Virus record (IMG/VR): IMGVR_UViG_3300010357_000632
Reading direction: 5' to 3' (one strand)
DNA length: 25,527 nt
DNA from: a virus
The notes beneath the pieces were generated by a model. It searched no databases. It was not told where the DNA came from and saw only the letters and a program-made list of their open reading frames with translations. Position numbers and translations under genes: made by a program. Positions within the stretch are counted from its first letter, which is position 1. Each line of letters opens with the position of its first letter. Positions 13,796 to 24,058 of the stretch are shown here, in pieces.

Positions 13796-14848
13796 TCAGG
13801 CTACCACGTTCTTCATGAACATGCCTGCAGTTTTGGCCATTACCACCGGGCACCAGCACTGGAAGCCCTGGTAATAGGTTGTGTGGGTGTGCAGGTCGGG
13901 GACCTGAGAGAGGGCGGTATCGAATCCACCCAGAGGTTCGTTGAAGGACAGGTTCATGCCCGCTAGGGTAGTCAGAGGTCCGGGGGAGGTCACGTATCCC
14001 AGCCAGATGTGCTTACCGAATATCCAGTCAAGCGCGACAGTATCACCGGGAGCGGCGGTGTTGTACATGGCTTTAGCCACCAGAACGTTATCGATGTCCA
14101 GAGCCTGAGCTATCATCTGCTCGTTCAGCTTGGTGGGGACCTTGTCAGCACCCTGTGGGTTCCTGTAGAGACTGATCAGCTGGTTGTTGATCCTCAGCTC
14201 CTCGTATGCCTGCTCCCCTATGACCATGGTGTTGGGCAGGAGACCGCATGCCTTCTTAATGGCCAGCTTGCTGTCCTTGAATACGCCCAGGGGGTCAGAG
14301 TCTGCATCATTGAACTGCCTGATAGTCTCGCCTGTGGTGATCTCTCCAGGAGTCCAGGTCTCACCGCTGCCAGTTCCAGTGACATCGATTCCCCAAACAG
14401 ACTCCTTGAAGTAGCTGTTGGCGATGACCAGCTCCTTATTCAACTGGAGCACGTCAGTAACCATGTTGGTTGTCGCCTGCTCGATGGGGTAGCCCTGGTC
14501 GGCCACAAAGGGGATGTCGGCCATGAGGGGCATTTCGAAGGCATACCGTCGGCACACATACGAGCCGGGGGTATCTACCTTGAGTTCTCCCTGGGGCGGG
14601 ATGCTGCCGGGTCTCCACTCACCTGCCTTGTTGGTAAAGTGATTCTCCATAGCCCACTTGGGATAGAGACCGGCTATCTGGTTCACCGATATCATGGGGA
14701 ACCATTTATCAGCCACGAAGTTTGTGGGTTCCTGCCTGTAGGCGAGAGACCACTCCGATTCCAGCCGGGCTACGTGGATCTGTGAATAGTCCAGGCCCTT
14801 GTTAACCACCTGCTGGGCCAGGGATGCTATAGTTTCTTTGTAATCCAT
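13796..14848 (-). CDS. Major capsid protein (HK97 fold)
   Basis: 350 aa; IHV...AY.Q...FVAD..FP.ISV N-terminus and PNTMVIG...YEEL..N motif; position after scaffold and cement genes; GAGGTGA RBS. Confidence 0.9.
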   Translation of the reverse strand: MDYKETIASLAQQVVNKGLDYSQIHVARLESEWSLAYRQEPTNFVADKWFPMISVNQIAGLYPKWAMENHFTNKAGEWRPGSIPPQGELKVDTPGSYVCRRYAFEMPLMADIPFVADQGYPIEQATTNMVTDVLQLNKELVIANSYFKESVWGIDVTGTGSGETWTPGEITTGETIRQFNDADSDPLGVFKDSKLAIKKACGLLPNTMVIGEQAYEELRINNQLISLYRNPQGADKVPTKLNEQMIAQALDIDNVLVAKAMYNTAAPGDTVALDWIFGKHIWLGYVTSPGPLTTLAGMNLSFNEPLGGFDTALSQVPDLHTHTTYYQGFQCWCPVVMAKTAGMFMKNVVA

Positions 14849-15280: not shown

Positions 15281-15931
15281 TCAGATCACCCCCATCTGAG
15301 CGCGCACAGTACCTGCCCTCTCCTCGGCCAACACGGACTTAGCCAGAGCGCCATTCTCGCGAGTGGCTGCGGCTACCGCCAGAGCATGGCGAACCTTGGG
15401 ATCTGTGGGGCCGCTACCGGACTTCTGGATTAGGCTCTCGTGCTTGGTTACCAGGGCTTCGAACTCGGCCATAGAGGTCCCAGGTGCGGGCCTGTCGCTA
15501 CCCATCGGATGATAGAGCAGCTTACCGGCCTCGGCCTTCATTACGCTGGCCTGCTTGAGGGTCTTCAAGATAGTCTTCCGGGCCTCGGTCGGCAGAGCTT
15601 CCAGGCTCTTCAGGATCTCAGCACCCTCTTCAGGAGTCCCCAGGCCGGAGAAATCGGACTTGGCTATCTGCTCATACTCCTTCTTGCGGAGGATAGAGCG
15701 CAGCTCCTCGTTCTCCTTGCGGATCGGTTCGACTGCTTTCTGGACGATATCCAGCAGCTCAGCCTTGCTGACCAGAGCCCTAGCTCCGGCCTTGTCAGCC
15801 CTAGCGGGCTTGGTCTTTCTCATCGGTACACTTCCATTAGCTGATTTATATAATAAGAAACGCTTCCCATTAGCCGCTTTACCGACTAGGGAAACCTCAT
15901 CCAGTTCTAAATCCGTAAGTTCGTTTGGCAA
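15281..15931 (-). CDS. Capsid scaffolding protein
   Basis: TTG start with GAGGTGA RBS; N-terminal L.DLE.DEVSLV.K.AN...FLL.K motif; helical; lies between the protease and capsid genes. Confidence 0.65.
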   Translation of the reverse strand: MPNELTDLELDEVSLVGKAANGKRFLLYKSANGSVPMRKTKPARADKAGARALVSKAELLDIVQKAVEPIRKENEELRSILRKKEYEQIAKSDFSGLGTPEEGAEILKSLEALPTEARKTILKTLKQASVMKAEAGKLLYHPMGSDRPAPGTSMAEFEALVTKHESLIQKSGSGPTDPKVRHALAVAAATRENGALAKSVLAEERAGTVRAQMGVI

Positions 15932-15963: not shown

Positions 15964-16929
15964 TCAGAAGGGGGTGCGTGTGCCGGTCCCTGCGATGGAG
16001 AAGCCGGTTATCTCGCCTTTCTTCACGGCCTGCCAGAGAGAGGGGTCGTGGATCTTTACCGCCATTACCCAGCTTCCTTTTCTGACCTTTTGGCCGTTGC
16101 ACTTGAAGTTGGTTGGGGCGATATAGCTCTCGATGATACTGGCTTTGGCGGGCCCGGAGTGCTCCTTGCCGATCCTCTGGCTGGTCTGCATGAACTTGTG
16201 ACATGCCTTCCTGATCTCGGACTCGCTCAGTCGGTCGCCCTGAAGATCGATTACCCCAGGTTCACTAACGACTCCATAGCAGATCTGCTGGTCTGCGGCC
16301 TTGGAGACAATGATAGGCACCCGGTAGGACTTCATGACCTTGCTTACTTCGTCCTCGTCTTCCTCATCCTCATCATCTTCCTTCAGGAACTCGGGGAGGT
16401 CTTCATCCTCTTCATCTTCGTCCTCTTCAGGCTCTTCGTCCTCGGCCTTCTCTGCCTCATGCTCTGCCAGGACTTCGCGGATGTCGTCTATGAGGTCACT
16501 GGTAGCCTCCTCTTCGGGCTCAGTTTCATCACCGAAAAGATCCTCTTCAGATATGCCGTCGTCTGGGTCAGCATCGGCCTCGATCTGCTCTTCTTCGCCT
16601 TCATCGGGGTCTGGTGTGTCCTCGGGCTCAGGCTCGTCTGATCCGCCCTCGTCCTGCATCTCAAGCCACTGCTCAAGTGCTGCCTTGTGCTTGGATTCGT
16701 CTTGTTTGATGGCTTCCGCCATTTCTTTGAGCTGTGGGTCAGTGGCCATCTCGATCAGCTGGTCGATTTCATCTATGCCTTCGCCTTCACCGGCCAGTAT
16801 GGCGCGAACGCGATCTAAATCGGAGCCTTTCTCCAGCTCCTCGTCTTCTATATATTCTTCTTCATCCATAGAATTACCTTCTAATCGGGGAACGTGGATG
16901 TCTCCGAAATCGATACCTTTGTTAATCAT
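15964..16929 (-). CDS. XkdF-like putative prohead serine protease with extended N-terminus (capsid-arm copy, ferritin-like hairpin, acidic linker)
   Basis: C-terminal QQICYGVVSEPGVIDLQGD...EIRKACHKFM...IGKEH...IIESYIAP...KGSWVMAVKI.D..LW..VKKGEITGFSIAG is the XkdF signature. A second possible start lies at 16869 (GAAGGT upstream). Confidence 0.85.
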   Translation of the reverse strand: MINKGIDFGDIHVPRLEGNSMDEEEYIEDEELEKGSDLDRVRAILAGEGEGIDEIDQLIEMATDPQLKEMAEAIKQDESKHKAALEQWLEMQDEGGSDEPEPEDTPDPDEGEEEQIEADADPDDGISEEDLFGDETEPEEEATSDLIDDIREVLAEHEAEKAEDEEPEEDEDEEDEDLPEFLKEDDEDEEDEDEVSKVMKSYRVPIIVSKAADQQICYGVVSEPGVIDLQGDRLSESEIRKACHKFMQTSQRIGKEHSGPAKASIIESYIAPTNFKCNGQKVRKGSWVMAVKIHDPSLWQAVKKGEITGFSIAGTGTRTPF

Positions 16930-17481: not shown

Positions 17482-17616
17482 ATGGTTTTCGTGAAGAAAA
17501 CCATTACCATCCGGCAAGACCAGGATGTGTGGATCAAAGAGCATCCCAAGATCAATCTCTCTGGCCAGATCCAACACTGGCTAGATAACCTCATAGACGC
17601 ATATGAGCAACACTAA
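17482..17616 (+). CDS. Ribbon-helix-helix DNA-binding protein (44 aa, below the ORF-track cutoff)
   Basis: Translated by hand: MVFVKKTITIRQDQDVWIKEHPKINLSGQIQHWLDNLIDAYEQH. GGAGG RBS at 17471; alternating beta-strand KKTITI, then a helix, then NLS..I...L. Confidence 0.75.
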   Translation: MVFVKKTITIRQDQDVWIKEHPKINLSGQIQHWLDNLIDAYEQH

Positions 17617-18818
17617 TATGTGTGGAACCTCTTCTTTGATTTGGTTCCATCCGGATGGGCATACTCTACCACGATATCGGTACTGCACTCCCCATGTTCG
17701 CTGTCGCACGGGGAAGACCATCGCCGAATCTCCGTTTTTTCGCCCGTGGACCGCGCTTGGTCGAATGCTTTGGCCTCTTGTGCTGCCCTTTTATCAGCAT
17801 GTGCCTTGTCGCGGGCCGCTTGCTCCCCCTCAGCCGCATCGATGATCTCCTTGAGCTTCTCGTGCGGTATTTCGTACCACCTATAACCACCCGCGTCCGG
17901 GGCACGTTTGCTGCTGTTCAACATGGCCTGCCATATCTGTGTGTGATATCTCTCGATCTTGGCTTTCATGTCCTGCAGATCGGGCCGGAACTCGGTTCCA
18001 ACTTCCTTAGGATGATAGACCGGCATGCCATCGTCGGTCCAGCGCCACGTCTTGACCTGGACTTTGGCAGCATCGTCTTTTAGCCCCTGAATGTTTCTCT
18101 TGTCCTCTTCTTTGATGTGGGTGATGGCTTCGGGTGGTAAGGTTAAGAAAACGTCTTGCTTTCCCTTTCCAAGAAGTTTTCCTATATTGCTATATCTCGA
18201 AAAGTTGACGCCGGACTTGCCTTGTTTCACTCCGACATCTGACGCGCTAAACTTAGCATCTACCGAAATTGGCCTGGTGATCTTTATTGCGAACGTTGAC
18301 CGGCTCACGCCATTGTGGTGAGACGTTCCGTCGAGTGTGATCTCTACGTCCTTATTGGCGTCGGAGAACTTCTTGGTTTCGGGTGTCTGTGTTTGTTCAG
18401 GTTTCCCCTCCCCCTCCGGCTTCTTTGTGGGCTCCGGCTGCTTCTCAGGTTCTGGCTTCTTCTCGGGCTCTTTTGGCTTGCTCGTGTTCAGCCATCCGAT
18501 CTTGTCCAATGCGCTGCCACCACTCAAGAGTGTCTGGATAGCACCGGACACTCGTCCCTGGCTGGCTGCTTCCGCACGCCTTTCCAGCTTCCTCTTCGTC
18601 TTGGATGGCTTCTTGGAGCCGCCTCCTGAGCCCGACGTGAACTTGCCATCGTCTGCACGGGGGTGCTTGGATTCCTCCCAATCGCCCGCTTTCTTGAGTC
18701 GGTGATTGGTGCCGCCGAGAAATATAGAGCCGTCCGGGGCTACGTGGTGCCGCCTAGCCTCTTCGAACCAATCAAGATTCCGGAGGATAGACTTGAGGAT
18801 GGGTATGCGCATGATCAT
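17613..18818 (-). CDS. Putative head-associated cargo protein with WEESKHPR..GKF motif
   Basis: GAGGT RBS; MIMRIPILKS leader; DWEESKHPRADDGKFTSGSGGG; P/E/K-rich linker; C-terminal domain of unknown function. Confidence 0.8.
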   Translation of the reverse strand: MIMRIPILKSILRNLDWFEEARRHHVAPDGSIFLGGTNHRLKKAGDWEESKHPRADDGKFTSGSGGGSKKPSKTKRKLERRAEAASQGRVSGAIQTLLSGGSALDKIGWLNTSKPKEPEKKPEPEKQPEPTKKPEGEGKPEQTQTPETKKFSDANKDVEITLDGTSHHNGVSRSTFAIKITRPISVDAKFSASDVGVKQGKSGVNFSRYSNIGKLLGKGKQDVFLTLPPEAITHIKEEDKRNIQGLKDDAAKVQVKTWRWTDDGMPVYHPKEVGTEFRPDLQDMKAKIERYHTQIWQAMLNSSKRAPDAGGYRWYEIPHEKLKEIIDAAEGEQAARDKAHADKRAAQEAKAFDQARSTGEKTEIRRWSSPCDSEHGECSTDIVVEYAHPDGTKSKKRFHTY

Positions 18819-18827
18819 AATATAACC

Positions 18828-18953
18828 TCAGCAATATTTTTCGGCTTCAGAACCAAGCTCTCGCAGGGCCTGCCAATCGTCCAGCAATGCCCGACAGCGA
18901 GCTACCATGGCCCGGTGGGCTTCTCGGGCTTCGAAATCTTCTTCAGGAAACAT
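18828..18953 (-). CDS. Small hypothetical protein (41 aa)
   Basis: ATG 1 nt after the upstream TGA: MFPEEDFEAREAHRAMVARCRALLDDWQALRELGSEAEKYC; fills the gap exactly. Confidence 0.5.
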   Translation of the reverse strand: MFPEEDFEAREAHRAMVARCRALLDDWQALRELGSEAEKYC

Positions 18954-18954
18954 T

Positions 18955-19920
18955 TCAGGTCGATCCAGGATAATCAATTGGCAATAAGTGGTGAATGCAA
19001 TTCGGATGCAGGAGGCCCTGTGAAATGGCAGTATCAAGAGCAGGATACTCTTTCGACTTTCCCGAGATAGATACAATCTTCCCGGCCCACTCGCGGCATA
19101 CGTCGCAGGTGTTCGGCCTGATCTCACGAGAAATCAAGACCAGATCCTCTTTCTGCTCGACTGCCCGGTTGATTGATCCTTCGTTAAATGAGTTCCTAGC
19201 AGCTGTGATCGCCACCATCTGAATGTAATCTGCGATCCCCAGCTCTTTTCCGTCTATCGTCTTGTGACCTATGATCCTGCCTTTCAGGCCTGTATAGTCA
19301 GCCTTCTTGTTAGCCAGCGCTGCCTGTGCCCGTCTCTTCTCCGATTCGGCTATGACCTCTTCTATGTGTCTGGAGAGCTGAGCATCCACTTCCCGGAAGC
19401 GGTTCATCTCCTGAGTGGCCATGGCCTGAGCAGCTTTAGCATGCGGCCCCTGTAGTGACCCAGCACGAGATCCCGCCAGGTACAGACCTGGGATGGAAGT
19501 TCCCAGCCAGGAGGCGGCATTCACCAACAGCTCTCGCCTGATCCGGTCTGTGAGGGCCCTCAGCCTGTCCGGGTTATCGAGGTTCTGGTCGATGGCCGCC
19601 TTGATCGCCTTCTCGCCTCGCTTGTAGAGCAGAGCGATGATAGCAGCGGTCTCTTTGATCCTCTTCCGGGGGTCCTTCTCTTTCTCGGAGGCTCGGACAG
19701 CCTTCTCGATCTCTGACAGAGGGAGCTGGGATAGAAGGAAGGTCTCTGGTCTGCCGGCAGCACGCCAGAGCTTGCGCTTCAAGTCTGGCAGGTCATAGCC
19801 CAGAGCTCGAGCTCTGCGCCAGAACGATGGGGTGAGCAGGTCGTATCTGGCTTGATCGGTGAGGTCCCCATCCGACAAGTAGCCGGTTGCTCGGATCAGA
19901 GAGAGAAGTTCGGAGTTCAT
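18955..19920 (-). CDS. Phage minor capsid / head morphogenesis protein (MuF / minor capsid 2-like)
   Basis: C-terminal TCDVCREWAGKIVSISG...YP.L...GLLHPNCIH motif; position after the portal. Confidence 0.85.
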   Translation of the reverse strand: MNSELLSLIRATGYLSDGDLTDQARYDLLTPSFWRRARALGYDLPDLKRKLWRAAGRPETFLLSQLPLSEIEKAVRASEKEKDPRKRIKETAAIIALLYKRGEKAIKAAIDQNLDNPDRLRALTDRIRRELLVNAASWLGTSIPGLYLAGSRAGSLQGPHAKAAQAMATQEMNRFREVDAQLSRHIEEVIAESEKRRAQAALANKKADYTGLKGRIIGHKTIDGKELGIADYIQMVAITAARNSFNEGSINRAVEQKEDLVLISREIRPNTCDVCREWAGKIVSISGKSKEYPALDTAISQGLLHPNCIHHLLPIDYPGST

Positions 19921-20105
19921 ATGATTTCGGTTACCTTCGCCACGACACGAGCGCTTAGATCAGGGCGGCTCATGTCATCACATCGCATCACGAGATGGTC
20001 TGCTAGGGAGAGGACGTACTCTTTGCTCGACCACCTCACCGGGCAGTCTATAAGCTCGATCAGTGCATCTACGCGCCTATCGAGATCGAGGGTGTAGCTG
20101 GGCAT
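19917..20105 (-). CDS. Hypothetical protein (62 aa)
   Basis: GAGG upstream; 4-bp overlap with the next gene. Confidence 0.55.
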   Translation of the reverse strand: MPSYTLDLDRRVDALIELIDCPVRWSSKEYVLSLADHLVMRCDDMSRPDLSARVVAKVTEII

Positions 20106-20114
20106 TTAGGCCTC

Positions 20115-20477
20115 TCAGTTGTAGCCGTCCACTGCGGCGGATGATGCTATATATGGGCCGGTGGCGCAATCGCAATCATCTTCGTCTTCGCTACAAGTGC
20201 ATCCAGATGGGGCAACTGCCATCCCTGCCATAGACCGGGCCAGACCGTCAAAGTACTCTTTCTGGGCCTGTTCGAAGGCGTTCTTGTAGCCCGACGCCCA
20301 GGTAATTTGCATAACTCGGTTCATGGGAATGGTGATGCAGGAATCCTCGCCCGTAACGCATTCTACGACGCCAGGACCCTGGCGGATCTCGCCACAGAGT
20401 ACGGTCGGGACGATGCCTCTGATGTGGAACTTAAGTCTCTCCCAAACCGTCTCGGGATAAGTCAGAACGTAAATCAT
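20115..20477 (-). CDS. Hypothetical protein (120 aa)
   Basis: GGAGG RBS; 4-bp overlap with the upstream gene; acidic Cys-containing tail. Confidence 0.65.
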   Translation of the reverse strand: MIYVLTYPETVWERLKFHIRGIVPTVLCGEIRQGPGVVECVTGEDSCITIPMNRVMQITWASGYKNAFEQAQKEYFDGLARSMAGMAVAPSGCTCSEDEDDCDCATGPYIASSAAVDGYN

Positions 20478-20731
20478 GTTTCCCTCCGATTATTCAGAAA
20501 TCCTCTGAAGTTGTAGTATTCGTATCCCACCAGGAACAATAGAGCCTGGGGGACGTCGCCTGTCTGGTAAAAACCAATACCGATCATTCCGTTGCTGATC
20601 ATCCAGACAGCGAACCCTATCTTCCGGGTGCGTCTGGTCGCGCTGGACACCAGCCGGGCACCCAGGAGCGATAGAACGACGATCAGCCAGGGGTAGAGAC
20701 TATCGACCGGATGGAGCAAATTCTGCACCAC
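20474..20731 (-). CDS. Small membrane protein, short PnuC-like pattern
   Basis: Three hydrophobic segments with W..V.LSLLGA.L...K.GF..W.ISN...G...QA.LF; overlaps the portal end by 32 bp. Confidence 0.55.
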   Translation of the reverse strand: MVQNLLHPVDSLYPWLIVVLSLLGARLVSSATRRTRKIGFAVWMISNGMIGIGFYQTGDVPQALLFLVGYEYYNFRGFLNNRRET

Positions 20732-22208
20732 CCAATATCGCGTCTATTGCGCTCTGGCCATCGAGCAGGCTCTCTATCGGGCTGTCGCCGTGCTCCTGCA
20801 GAGCGTCGTTCGTCTCCTGCTCCACATAGTTTGGCAAGCCCAGGTTGTCGATGATGGTGTCCCGTATTCCCTTCTGCTGTGATAGATCCCAACCAGCTTT
20901 CTCGAAGAGACTCAGGATAGCCACCACATCCTGGGTGGCTATGGGGACAATAGGATCATAGACGATCCTGGGCATGGGTGTACCCTTCTCGAACTCGAAA
21001 TGTGGGTTGAGGGCGAATAGCCGTCTGACTGCTTGGTTGTTGATCGACTCCTGGAAGCTCTGCAAGTTGGCTTCGACTGCTAGCGTGAAGTTGTCCGTCT
21101 TATCCCTGCTGAGAGCAAGACTGCCAGTTCCTCCCATCCCGAGCGCCAGGAACTCTGTGAACGTGCTCATGAGCACCGCTTTTGCCTCAGCCTCGATCGA
21201 GCTGGTTATGTGGTTGACGATATCGCCGTTTGTGGACGGCTGTAGAAACCCTATCTTGATGGTGGGGTTCCCGTTCTGATCCCAGACCTGGGGGGTAATC
21301 AGCCAGTGCTGCTCCTGCATGGATATGCTCTCAAGGCTTTCCTTGATGCTGATGTAAGATCCGTATGCTTCTTGTGCTACTGGATCGTCAGGATTGGCCG
21401 CAAGCAACGCCGGAGCACTGGCTATGTTGGCCGGAACCTCAGCCCACGGTATTCCCGCACCTCCTCTCTCTATAATTATATTTCTATAATCTTCAAGATA
21501 CTTCTTAGTCCTCCAAGATCGCCAGGCAGATCGCAGGACTGACCGGCCTTCTGGTGAGTCCTTGCCGGGGTCTGATCTGAGGAGGAGGATCTTCTGGATA
21601 GGGATAAATGTGGTTTTGTAGTCTGGTGCTGCCAGCTGGGTAAATCCCAATAGACGGGTTACGTCCTGGGGGTCGTAGTCCCAATGAAAAACGCTGTCAG
21701 GAGCACGGTAAGCCAGGTTGGACCATCCTATGAGGCCGTCATCGTACTGCGAGGACATCCGTTCATCTTCGTGATCTCCGGCTCGTTCCTTGTAGACGAT
21801 CTCCAGGGGGAGGAATCCGTACTGTGGCACCGCACGGGCTGCGGTGGCGATGATAGTCTGCCAGCTGTGGGCCATGTCAGCCATGCATTCCTGCAGGAAC
21901 TCCGCAGAGCCATTATCCTTGTTGGCGTCGTCTACCGCATCCACCTTCCAGTGGGCGCGGCGGATGAAGACTGCGAAGGCGCTGAGGGCGGCACCCACGA
22001 AGGCGTCATTATCACCCATCTCGGTGTAGGTGCGAAATAGAGCCTGACCCTGCAGCTGCGGGAGGAAGTCGCGTTTGATCCACCCCGGCATGAAGTACTG
22101 CAATCCTGAGCGCCCGTACTGCTGGCCAGCGAGCGCCCTTGGGCTCTGGATAAATTTCGGGTAGATGCCGCCGTTGGGGGCTGCTGGGGGCTGGGGGGAT
22201 TGTGGCAT
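20700..22208 (-). CDS. Portal protein (DUF935-like)
   Basis: 502 aa after terL; YGRSGL, Y.EM..ND..VGA, YGF...EIVYK, PEGRSVLRSAWRSW..K and ALG...TGS.ALS motifs. Confidence 0.9.
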   Translation of the reverse strand: MPQSPQPPAAPNGGIYPKFIQSPRALAGQQYGRSGLQYFMPGWIKRDFLPQLQGQALFRTYTEMGDNDAFVGAALSAFAVFIRRAHWKVDAVDDANKDNGSAEFLQECMADMAHSWQTIIATAARAVPQYGFLPLEIVYKERAGDHEDERMSSQYDDGLIGWSNLAYRAPDSVFHWDYDPQDVTRLLGFTQLAAPDYKTTFIPIQKILLLRSDPGKDSPEGRSVLRSAWRSWRTKKYLEDYRNIIIERGGAGIPWAEVPANIASAPALLAANPDDPVAQEAYGSYISIKESLESISMQEQHWLITPQVWDQNGNPTIKIGFLQPSTNGDIVNHITSSIEAEAKAVLMSTFTEFLALGMGGTGSLALSRDKTDNFTLAVEANLQSFQESINNQAVRRLFALNPHFEFEKGTPMPRIVYDPIVPIATQDVVAILSLFEKAGWDLSQQKGIRDTIIDNLGLPNYVEQETNDALQEHGDSPIESLLDGQSAIDAILGGAEFAPSGR

Positions 22209-22288
22209 GAGAGACTTCCTACTTGATGGGTACTTGATGCGGTTCTACAAAATCGATAACATGAGACTATGATGGAGATTTGGCTGCT

Positions 22289-22561
22289 CTATTTTTTCTT
22301 ATCGGCCTTGTGCCGGTTGGTGCTCCGGCTGACTGCCCGAAGGTTGCGTTTGCTGTTGCTGCCGCCATTGCTGAGTGGGTTCTTGTGATCGGCTTCCCTC
22401 GGATCGCCCTTTGGGATGCCCAGCTTTCTCCTGGCTGCGTTCCTCTGTGCCCGTCGCTTGATCTGCTCGGGCTTCCCGTGGTAGCTGCGATATTCTTCCT
22501 TGTAATCCCGGGCCTTCTCTTTCTCCAGGACAGCCTTCAGGATCGGGATTCGCATGATCAT
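22289..22561 (-). CDS. Stand-alone HNH endonuclease
   Basis: EADHKNPLSNGGSNSKRNLRAVSRSTNR core (H-N-N variant); basic; MIMRIPILKA leader. Confidence 0.85.
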   Translation of the reverse strand: MIMRIPILKAVLEKEKARDYKEEYRSYHGKPEQIKRRAQRNAARRKLGIPKGDPREADHKNPLSNGGSNSKRNLRAVSRSTNRHKADKKK

Positions 22562-22567
22562 AGTGGT

Positions 22568-24058
22568 CTACTTCCAAGGGGGCACTCGTTTGCCTCCGGT
22601 GAGTGTGAGCTTGGGCATCACAAAGGTATTCACCGGCGCAAATGTGAGCATGACAGCGTCGGCTCTGTCCGGGCTATGCCCGAGACGCTTCTTTGTCTCT
22701 TCTTTGTCCTCGATCTGGATCTGGCCTTTTCCCGTGATCTTGTAGATAGGAGCTGCCAAGTCTCCGAGGAGGTCGTCGTCTGGTGGTAGTGCTAAAGGTT
22801 CGGGATTCTTCGGGTCCAATGATTCACGGAGAGCCCACCAGAGCTCGGCCCGGAGATTAAGATAGACCTTGTTGCCATCGTCATCTACCACATCCGAAGC
22901 GGACCCGACATTAACAGGAATAACAGGAGCTTTCGCGGCTTTCAGAGGATCGACCACGCCAGCGCCCAGACCTATCACATCCACCTTGATGTGCTTGGCG
23001 TTGATTTTCCTAGCAGCCACCAGGACCTCGCCTGTGACCTCCTGGGTGTCTTTGCCCGACATCACCTGAAGAGGATAGACTTTCATGCCCTGGCGGGGCG
23101 CTATAACGCTCAGATCGGAGCCGTAACGGGCTACATCGACCCCCAGCTCATACGAACCCTCGCCCTTGGTGTCTTCCCACCGAGCCATTGATGCTTCTAT
23201 CCATGCCAATGGGATGACGTTGTTCTCACCCTGTGTTGGGAAGTTGCCTGCTACCCTGGCCTGATATGCAGGATGGTTCTTGCCCCAGCGGGTTAGCTTG
23301 TCTGCTGCCCAGGTGGGCGTGATGAGGTACGGTGCGGGCCAATTGTACGATCCATCTGGGTTTTTGGCCGCTTTCTCTTTCCAAGCCCCAGACTCCAGGT
23401 CATCCTCAGTAATCCCAAACGCTGTGAAGTTTGGAGTGTCCCAGGCGGCGATATGGAACCGGGACCATCCCGGCTCCCGATGAGAGCGGTAGAATGTGCC
23501 GCCGATCAGCGTTGGGTTTCCTAATAGCAATAATCTGCAATGACCTGACGTGACAACGCCCTCGATGGCCTCGAAAATGTCCTCTTTTACGCCCGCCGCT
23601 TCGTCTACTATAACTAAGAGATGCGGCGCATGGAACCCCTGGAACCTGTCGGGTTGGTTGGTTGACAACCCCAATGCTACCCATTCATCCTGCACTATCT
23701 GAAGCTCGGGGCTCTTTTTCGCCAGCTCTCCACCCAATAAGATCTTGGACTTGCGGACACTCGACCTAACCTCTTTCCAGATCAGCTTTTCGACCTGGCG
23801 GAAGGTTGGTGCTGTGGTGAGTACTATAGAATAAGGAAACGTGTAAAGGAACCATAGCGTGGCGTTGCCTGCCAGATGGGATTTGCCTATGCCGTGACAA
23901 GACCGTGCTGTGGTGCGCTCGTTGTCCCTGATGGACTCAACTATATCTTTCTGAGCCGACCAGAATTTAGTACCCAGCGCACGATTGATCCACCACACCG
24001 GATCTGCTGGGGCGCGGGCTTTCAGCTCCTTGCGCTGTTCCTTCGTGAGTGGTATCAA
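22568..24058 (-). CDS. terL: Terminase large subunit
   Basis: Walker A (RSCHGIGKS), Walker B (LLVIVDEAAG), nuclease motifs LGVDVARYGSD and RLGHSPDRADA; TTG start. Confidence 0.95.
   Translation of the reverse strand: MIPLTKEQRKELKARAPADPVWWINRALGTKFWSAQKDIVESIRDNERTTARSCHGIGKSHLAGNATLWFLYTFPYSIVLTTAPTFRQVEKLIWKEVRSSVRKSKILLGGELAKKSPELQIVQDEWVALGLSTNQPDRFQGFHAPHLLVIVDEAAGVKEDIFEAIEGVVTSGHCRLLLLGNPTLIGGTFYRSHREPGWSRFHIAAWDTPNFTAFGITEDDLESGAWKEKAAKNPDGSYNWPAPYLITPTWAADKLTRWGKNHPAYQARVAGNFPTQGENNVIPLAWIEASMARWEDTKGEGSYELGVDVARYGSDLSVIAPRQGMKVYPLQVMSGKDTQEVTGEVLVAARKINAKHIKVDVIGLGAGVVDPLKAAKAPVIPVNVGSASDVVDDDGNKVYLNLRAELWWALRESLDPKNPEPLALPPDDDLLGDLAAPIYKITGKGQIQIEDKEETKKRLGHSPDRADAVMLTFAPVNTFVMPKLTLTGGKRVPPWK

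Follow-up and report, generated by a model that had tools for sequence, protein, structure and literature searches.

Molecular detail on the loading of non-structural proteins into the heads of tailed viruses is available for very few phages, chiefly T4, and, to our knowledge, for no archaeal virus. In T4, the internal proteins IPI-III and the protein Alt carry a capsid targeting sequence (CTS), an N-terminal peptide of about ten residues that targets the scaffold core and is cut at L/I-x-E; the cargo is exchangeable, and nucleases have been loaded artificially (PMC9026906). A leader with some of these properties was found in IMGVR_UViG_3300010357_000632, an uncultured tailed, Mu-like virus with a link to Methanothrix, whose whole stretch of 25,527 nucleotides is referred to here as the window. 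Two proteins encoded in its head-gene cluster, a 90-aa HNH nuclease and a 401-aa protein related to known cargo proteins, begin with the same nine residues, and it is proposed below that this leader may act as a portal or prohead targeting tag.

Like the T4 CTS, the leader is a short N-terminal peptide on different head-cluster proteins with exchangeable cargo. Unlike it, the leader lacks sequence similarity to the CTS as well as an L/I-x-E site, and the protease of the virus is of the XkdF/S78_2 type, not gp21. While targeting by the T4 peptide is proven, the leader is known from sequence comparison, is found on two families only, has a sibling (motif B) at module junctions, and has counterparts in which the proteins are fused in cis. 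The T4 CTS is thus the closest known system in function, and the leader is not a member of it by sequence, protease type, or proven properties.

Several other described systems share features with this locus. The 401-aa protein resembles polyvalent proteins and portal- or MuF-fused effectors (Iyer et al., 2017, PMC5512222; MuF polymorphic toxins, Jamet et al., 2017, PMC5576092) in its HPR tag and variable C-terminal domain, and its gene lies near those for MuF and the portal; such modules are fused to the portal in two relatives, L036 and L037. It differs from polyvalent proteins in being a single free-standing module with an extra, lineage-specific leader and an archaeal association, and from polyvalent effectors in having a C-terminal domain without a recognisable enzyme fold. 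The term "HPR" is not mentioned in the full text of either PMC5512222 or PMC5576092. The HNH protein is of the same sequence family as the terminase-associated HNH nucleases (HK97 gp74 type; Gme HNH, 4h9d, PMC3592412), and its gene likewise lies beside those for terminase and portal. Unlike these enzymes, it is tagged in the same way as the cargo, and its relatives are fused to the portal C-terminus, the protease, and the cargo; because of the shared tag and these fusions, it fits poorly with a helper acting outside the capsid. Encapsulin cargo-loading peptides are also short terminal peptides found on unrelated cargo of an HK97-fold shell, and the viral protease has an encapsulated-ferritin-like (EncFtn-like) domain. 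In contrast to encapsulin peptides, to which no sequence similarity was seen, the comparative links of the leader point to portal and protease, not to the shell protein. No published account was found of the lineage-specific leader, of its being related to a junction motif or carried by an HNH nuclease, or of tags in trans alternating with fusions in cis in archaeon-associated viruses.

Natural "Rosetta-stone" fusions, in which the portal and the head protease are the partners, provide a key for reading the leader, which is therefore a testable candidate loading signal. The viruses concerned are those of a globally important methanogen, and the leader is also tied to the HPR tag, which is widespread in phage polyvalent proteins but has barely been described. 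If the proposed function is correct, virion-borne effectors might be recognised from sequence by their tag, and the tag could serve to bring foreign proteins into capsids.

A leader shared by two head-cluster proteins

The 401-aa protein (window 17613-18818, minus strand) begins with MIMRIPILKSIL and the 90-aa HNH protein (22289-22561, minus strand) with MIMRIPILKAVL, giving a common leader of MIMRIPILK[S/A][I/V]L in which residues 1-9 are identical and residues 1-12 similar. Our own estimate from amino-acid frequencies indicates that nine identical N-terminal residues on two proteins of one window cannot be chance. Within the first 12 codons there are five synonymous differences (cgc/cga, ata/atc, ccc/ccg, and ctc/ctg twice) and two conservative replacements (S/A and I/V), and the DNA upstream of the two leaders is unrelated. 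The first-pass annotation, made from the sequence alone, had reported this shared leader and argued that the peptide rather than the DNA is conserved; both observations stand, as do its coordinates, with both genes lying on the minus strand.

A search of IMG/VR for MIMRIPILK found 38 open reading frames (ORFs) on 35 contigs, every one of which encodes either an HNH protein of about 90 residues or a cargo-type protein. A looser scan for MIMRIPxL added a few members of the same two families, along with about 35 chance matches, most of them in frames of less than 55 aa and the two longer ones unrelated. In a regular-expression survey of 124 loci, the leader (motif A, here also tag A), motif B, and the HPR-x3-G-x-F tag (motif C) were confined to the HNH and cargo classes, bar one chance match in a short unrelated ORF. 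The proposal of a modular tag is therefore correct insofar as the leader is a portable N-terminal module on two different head-cluster proteins, but it does not extend to a general tag on many cargo classes: the IMG/VR scans gave these two families only, and in some relatives the two are fused together.

Among relatives, the leader is conserved at positions 1-8 (M-I-M-x-I-P-x-L), to which a short amphipathic stretch is added, while residue 9 may be K, R, H, D, P, Q, or S. Given this variation, the suggested clipping after Lys9 is improbable as the conserved feature of the leader and as a general cut. Leaders with identical peptides differ in codon at most positions (5/9), and some HNH genes encode the first residue of the leader by a TTG start. 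In the related virus L052, the leaders of both proteins have changed in concert (MIMHIPLLDVALSV and MIMNIPLLPAALSV; ..IPLL..ALSV), with five synonymous differences in 14 codons. Likewise, the same 27-aa composite of A and B occurs on the HNH and cargo families. This concerted change and the shared composite, retained despite synonymous differences, argue for selection on the leader at the peptide level and suggest that both leaders probably have a common partner. In AF2 models, the leader is a flexible appendage outside the fold of either protein.

Relationship of the leader to motif B and the portal tail

Motif B has the consensus PSA[LM]D[RK][IL]P[WY]L and is homologous to the leader. In an alignment anchored on the HNH core, MIM-RIPILKAVLEKE-KARDY matches SAMDRIPWLHTTIEKEEKARDY; tag A is therefore an N-terminally shortened motif B, with the first half replaced by a start. 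A and B are also found in tandem. Motif B lies at module junctions in several architectures, including a Zn-ribbon-like domain followed by B and HNH, a "domain X" followed by B and HNH, and the cargo N-terminal module followed by B, a linker, and the C-terminal domain. The tail of the Mu-type portal, SLLDGQSAIDAILGG, resembles TLLSGGSALDKIGWL of the cargo. In a six-frame scan of the window with a position-specific scoring matrix (PSSM) for motif B, this portal tail was the best non-self match, scoring 16.6 against 16.0 for the best chance hit; HMMER profiles of motif B found neither the portal tail nor leader A in the window.

Fusions in related viruses

Viruses sharing the portal, MuF, protease, and capsid genes of the window at 33-98% identity carry the HNH and cargo modules in a variety of fusions. 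In L051, a single ORF between terminase and portal combines tag, HNH, HPR tag, motif B, and a variable domain, and there is no separate cargo gene after MuF; P0074, P0075, and P0077 show the same architecture of HNH and cargo in one polypeptide. The earlier statement that the two proteins share nothing beyond the leader therefore holds for the window genome, but not for these relatives. In L065, the portal runs past its conserved tail (..SALDAILG) straight into an HNH core. In L099, the prohead protease carries a second HNH copy at its N-terminal end, directly ahead of the capsid N-arm copy with which these proteases otherwise begin. L036 and L037, which are arranged alike, encode a portal 98% identical to that of the window that continues beyond ..SAIDAILG into a module of about 335 aa headed by an HEH..GRF tag, for a total of 828 aa in L036 (L036:1737-4528). 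In L036, the following ORF (78 aa) consists of MuF residues 1-56 attached to another copy of the portal tail; this duplication has the appearance of a scar left by recombination at the tail motif. The fused modules of L065 and of L036/L037 begin exactly at the end of the portal tail motif. A further recombinant, P0118, consists of the leader, a broken HPR tag, and HNH.

Other modules are also found in these positions. Domain X, of about 110 residues with an HE..E motif, forms the N-terminus of the protease in L052 (L052:16793-18115) and L172 (ORF around 1479), and in P0208 it heads an HNH protein, with motif B coming next. Passenger modules, including domain X, HNH, and EncFtn, seem to be accommodated at the protease N-terminus.

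The 401-aa cargo protein and the HPR tag

The leader is present on 67 of the 83 cargo-family sequences tallied, the query included. Cargo relatives share just the N-terminal ~30% of the protein, and everything downstream of motif B varies. Module D, between the leader and the HPR tag, also heads P0085, a protease-scaffold fusion protein. In the AF2 model of the cargo, residues 1-145 are disordered, while residues 149-401 form a domain with a pLDDT of about 85. This domain had no convincing fold or PDB match (Foldseek E > 0.03; VIA-align Z <= 5.7). The same domain (window 17616-18374) is also found as a stand-alone protein of 253 aa in P0008 and P0009. Other cargo relatives have C-termini with weak matches to ART-PolyVal, MPTase-PolyVal, and metallopeptidases; for example, the C-terminal regions of L057:2136-3680 and L065:11556-12965 contain HExxH motifs and weakly match MPTase-PolyVal or a putative metallopeptidase. 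The cargo gene of L057 sits between those for terminase and HNH, not after MuF.

When 1.84 billion proteins were searched with a profile of cargo residues 43-116, 458 hits were obtained. The HPR-x3-G-x-F part of this profile (positions 2-30) is repeated 2-16 times within single proteins that are 600-7334 aa long, and several of the scanned HPR-repeat proteins carry ART-PolyVal, Zeta toxin, ADP-ribosyltransferase, or portal domains. Because of its tag, architecture, and gene position, the 401-aa protein is a single-module relative of the polyvalent and portal- or MuF-anchored cargo proteins (PMC5512222). A protein-atlas look-up of the cargo N-terminus returned low-score rows only.

The HNH nuclease

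By sequence, the 90-aa protein falls among the small HNH nucleases of phages, which form a large family. Its Pfam HNH (PF01844) match, at 18.9 bits, is under the 21.4 cut-off; D58, H59, N73, and N82 are invariant among relatives. The core is modelled by AF2 with a pLDDT of about 90, and the top Foldseek rows are all HNH nucleases, though none is significant (E > 0.1). In the same model, residues 1-5 of the leader are unstructured and residues 6-15 form a short helix (pLDDT 55-66). A prediction of a complex between portal and HNH, run without controls, gave a score of 0.00 and counts neither for nor against binding.

Tags were tallied in 121 HNH sequences, the 120 best relatives and the query itself: leader A occurs in 41, motif B in nine, both in three, and neither in 68. 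Untagged relatives occur in phages whose head genes are unrelated, either upstream of terminase or at the end of other proteins. Within the lineage of the window, every free-standing HNH examined carries A, B, or both. Tags are missing from the fused copies: the one fused to the protease has none, and the one fused to the portal directly follows the portal's own tail motif. In a tree of the HNH core, which is based on 72 columns and is poorly resolved, tagged and untagged forms cluster, both fused copies nest among the tagged forms, and A and B interchange between near-identical cores. Five relatives (P0133, P0136, P0137, P0138, and P0164) start with (..)MIM-AEKARDY, in which MIM is kept and RIPILK.. 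is absent, as if precisely deleted.

Possible functions of the leader

Relatives have HNH and cargo joined to one another, to the C-terminal end of the portal, or to the N-terminal end of the protease. In solved portal structures the C-termini point into the capsid, and prohead proteases do their work within the prohead. By Rosetta-stone logic, HNH and cargo would therefore belong at the portal crown or in the prohead interior. For the cargo, such a placement is also suggested by the HPR tag, which is that of portal-fused and polyvalent effectors, and by its gene, which follows MuF. The favored interpretation, to which we assign a probability of roughly 0.45, is that the leader is a trans-acting portal or prohead targeting tag and perhaps also a processing site. 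On free-standing copies, the tag would do in trans what fusion does in cis, recruiting HNH and cargo, as the particle assembles, to the crown of the portal or the interior of the prohead; candidate partners are the portal, protease, scaffold, or MuF. The tag may also serve as a site at which the XkdF-type head protease trims or releases a module, and the location of motif B at junctions makes such cleavage possible.

A number of points weigh against this interpretation. The link between motif B and the portal tail is statistically weak and suggestive only. Tag A is at the extreme N-terminus with nothing upstream to remove, so it is not explained by a pure processing role. As the five HNH relatives with MIM and without RIPILK.. 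show, the enzyme itself can do without the tag. Fusions of HNH to the portal and to the protease were each seen on one metagenomic contig, and a metagenome scan for more HNH-protease fusions returned two proteases and no second fusion. For this lineage, targeting, presence in the virion, any cleavage, and injection or delivery into the host cell are inferred by sequence comparison. Finally, the HNH family type is found beside terminase genes and aids cos cleavage outside the capsid (PMC3592412).

The targeting interpretation can be broadened into an address code of "self-mimicry", in which accessory proteins would imitate the exposed ends of structural proteins by carrying short copies of them, and would thereby load in trans into the prohead. 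The portal-tail-like motif on HNH and polyvalent-type cargo and the capsid N-arm on the protease would be two instances, evolution would switch freely between tag and fusion, and the nuclease would be loaded and possibly delivered with the DNA. This extension is speculative and, at present, unlikely.

Among the alternatives, a role in processing alone is the most likely. Motif B could be recognised by the XkdF head protease where modules meet, so that fused modules are cut apart, with A as its remnant; the leader would be a short propeptide or half-site that has no part in targeting. Motif B does occur at junctions, a B-like motif is present at the portal tail ahead of HNH or cargo, and the substrates of a prohead protease lie, by definition, inside the prohead. 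Nevertheless, tag A is under strong purifying selection with just MIM upstream of it, and its conserved residues are hydrophobic (I-P-x-L) and offer no clear P1/P1' pair, with residue 9 being variable. Such a role is doubtful.

It is less probable still that the tag tethers a terminase-helper HNH and its neighbor to the portal or terminase outside the prohead, with neither protein being cargo. The HNH gene is between large terminase and portal, its start 6 nt after the terminase stop; untagged HNH relatives in other phages lie just upstream of the terminase genes; and the best structural look-alike is Gme HNH (4h9d), a prophage cos-associated nicking enzyme (PMC3592412). These observations must be set against the fusions to the portal C-terminus and protease N-terminus, which put HNH inside, and against the nature of the other tagged protein, which is cargo of the polyvalent type and has effector-like domains that are exchangeable.

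The conserved 5' ends could also have resulted from repeated recombination between the two genes together with exchange of cassettes, comparable to what is seen at the conserved borders of polymorphic toxins, in which case the peptide would lack a function of its own. P0118, the duplicated portal tail around the inserted cargo of L036, and the swaps between A and B all show the kind of event envisaged, but synonymous sites differ within one genome (5/12 codons in the window and 5/14 in L052) while the peptide is kept, which disfavors recent gene conversion and leaves this explanation very improbable. Mimicry of a host protein N-terminus for trimming by a host protease, which has a precedent in the capsid and scaffold proteins of staphylococcal phage 80alpha, two unrelated phage proteins that copy the cleaved leader of L27 and are cut by Prp, is scarcely credible here, as two incomplete Methanotrichaceae metagenome-assembled genomes (MAGs; 1.5 and 1.9 Mb) have no protein starting with the leader and contain three chance matches only (two 20-aa frames and one unrelated 84-aa frame).

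The head-gene cluster and its host

The head-gene cluster is on the minus strand and starts with a possible small terminase, followed by the large terminase, the HNH nuclease, and the Mu-type portal. After the portal come three small ORFs, the MuF/gp7-like minor head protein, and the 401-aa protein, and then, past a small plus-strand cassette, an EncFtn-like and XkdF protease, a scaffold, a cement-like protein, and the major capsid protein. The scaffold (15281-15931) is a separate gene adjoining that of the protease. Coordinates of the main features are given in Table 1.

Table 1. Main features of the window, in the order of the minus strand
Feature	Position	Strand	Basis or remark
Large terminase	22568..24058	-	PHROG 2 terminase large subunit, E 3e-40
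HNH leader (tag A), residues 1-12, MIMRIPILKAVL	22526..22561	-	Translation and DNA
HNH EKEKA spacer (residues 13-17) and core (18-90)	22292..22525	-	PHROG 4590, E 1e-14; several HNH PHROGs
Mu-type portal	20700..22208	-	Pfam Portal_Mu, E 2e-24
Portal C-terminal tail motif SLLDGQSAIDAILGG, residues 480-494	20727-20771	-	Conserved to ..AILG, variable beyond
MuF/SPP1 gp7-like minor head protein	18955..19920	-	Pfam Phage_min_cap2, E 1.6e-9; PHROG minor head protein; directly upstream of cargo gene
Cargo leader (tag A), residues 1-12, MIMRIPILKSIL	18783..18818	-	Translation and DNA
Cargo module D, residues 13-45 (RNLDWFEEARRHH..NHRLKKAG)	18684..18782	-	Optional insert between leader and HPR tag; missing in short-leader relatives
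Cargo HPR-x3-G-x-F tag (motif C), residues 46-67, DWEESKHPRADDGKF..	18618..18683	-	Profile search
Cargo basic stretch (residues 68-96) and internal junction motif B (97-114, LLSGGSALDKIGWLNTSK)	18477..18617	-	Conserved end of N-terminal module
Cargo Pro/Glu/Lys-rich linker (residues 115-148) and folded C-terminal domain (149-401)	17616..18476	-	AF2
Prohead protease	15964..16929	-	Pfam Peptidase_S78_2 (XkdF, PF14550), E 9e-33, match from residue 204

An archaeal host for the virus is plausible because a portal-based scan of species genomes located relatives on two MAG contigs, one from Methanothrix and the other, 159 kb long, from Methanotrichaceae, where the relative lies at the contig end. 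G001, the nearest virus record in the collection searched, is a fragment without the HNH gene. The large terminases of the close relatives L011 and L051 are only about 25% identical to that of the window (22568-24058), despite the same portal and head genes; therefore, the packaging enzyme has been swapped within the lineage.

The segment RVPIIVSKA of the prohead protease (residues 203-211; window 16297-16323, minus strand) had been described as a leader-like sequence that immediately precedes the protease domain. It instead lies within the domain, as the first strand of XkdF, since the Pfam match to PF14550 begins at residue 204 with profile position 2. Relatives have QVPIIKGD or MPIVK at the equivalent position, and a loose pattern for the segment also matches a non-coding frame of the window. 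Its likeness to the leader was rejected as part of the XkdF fold and at the level of chance.

The protease consists of a capsid N-arm copy, the EncFtn-like domain, an acidic linker, and the XkdF domain. In L065:12874-14808 and in P0085, protease and scaffold form a single ORF with an EncFtn/rubrerythrin-like domain, XkdF, and scaffold. The N-terminus of the window protease, MINKGIDFGDIHVPRLE (16876-16929), resembles residues 15-30 of the capsid protein, VNKGLDYSQIHVARLE (14798-14848), and this pairing is retained in relatives.

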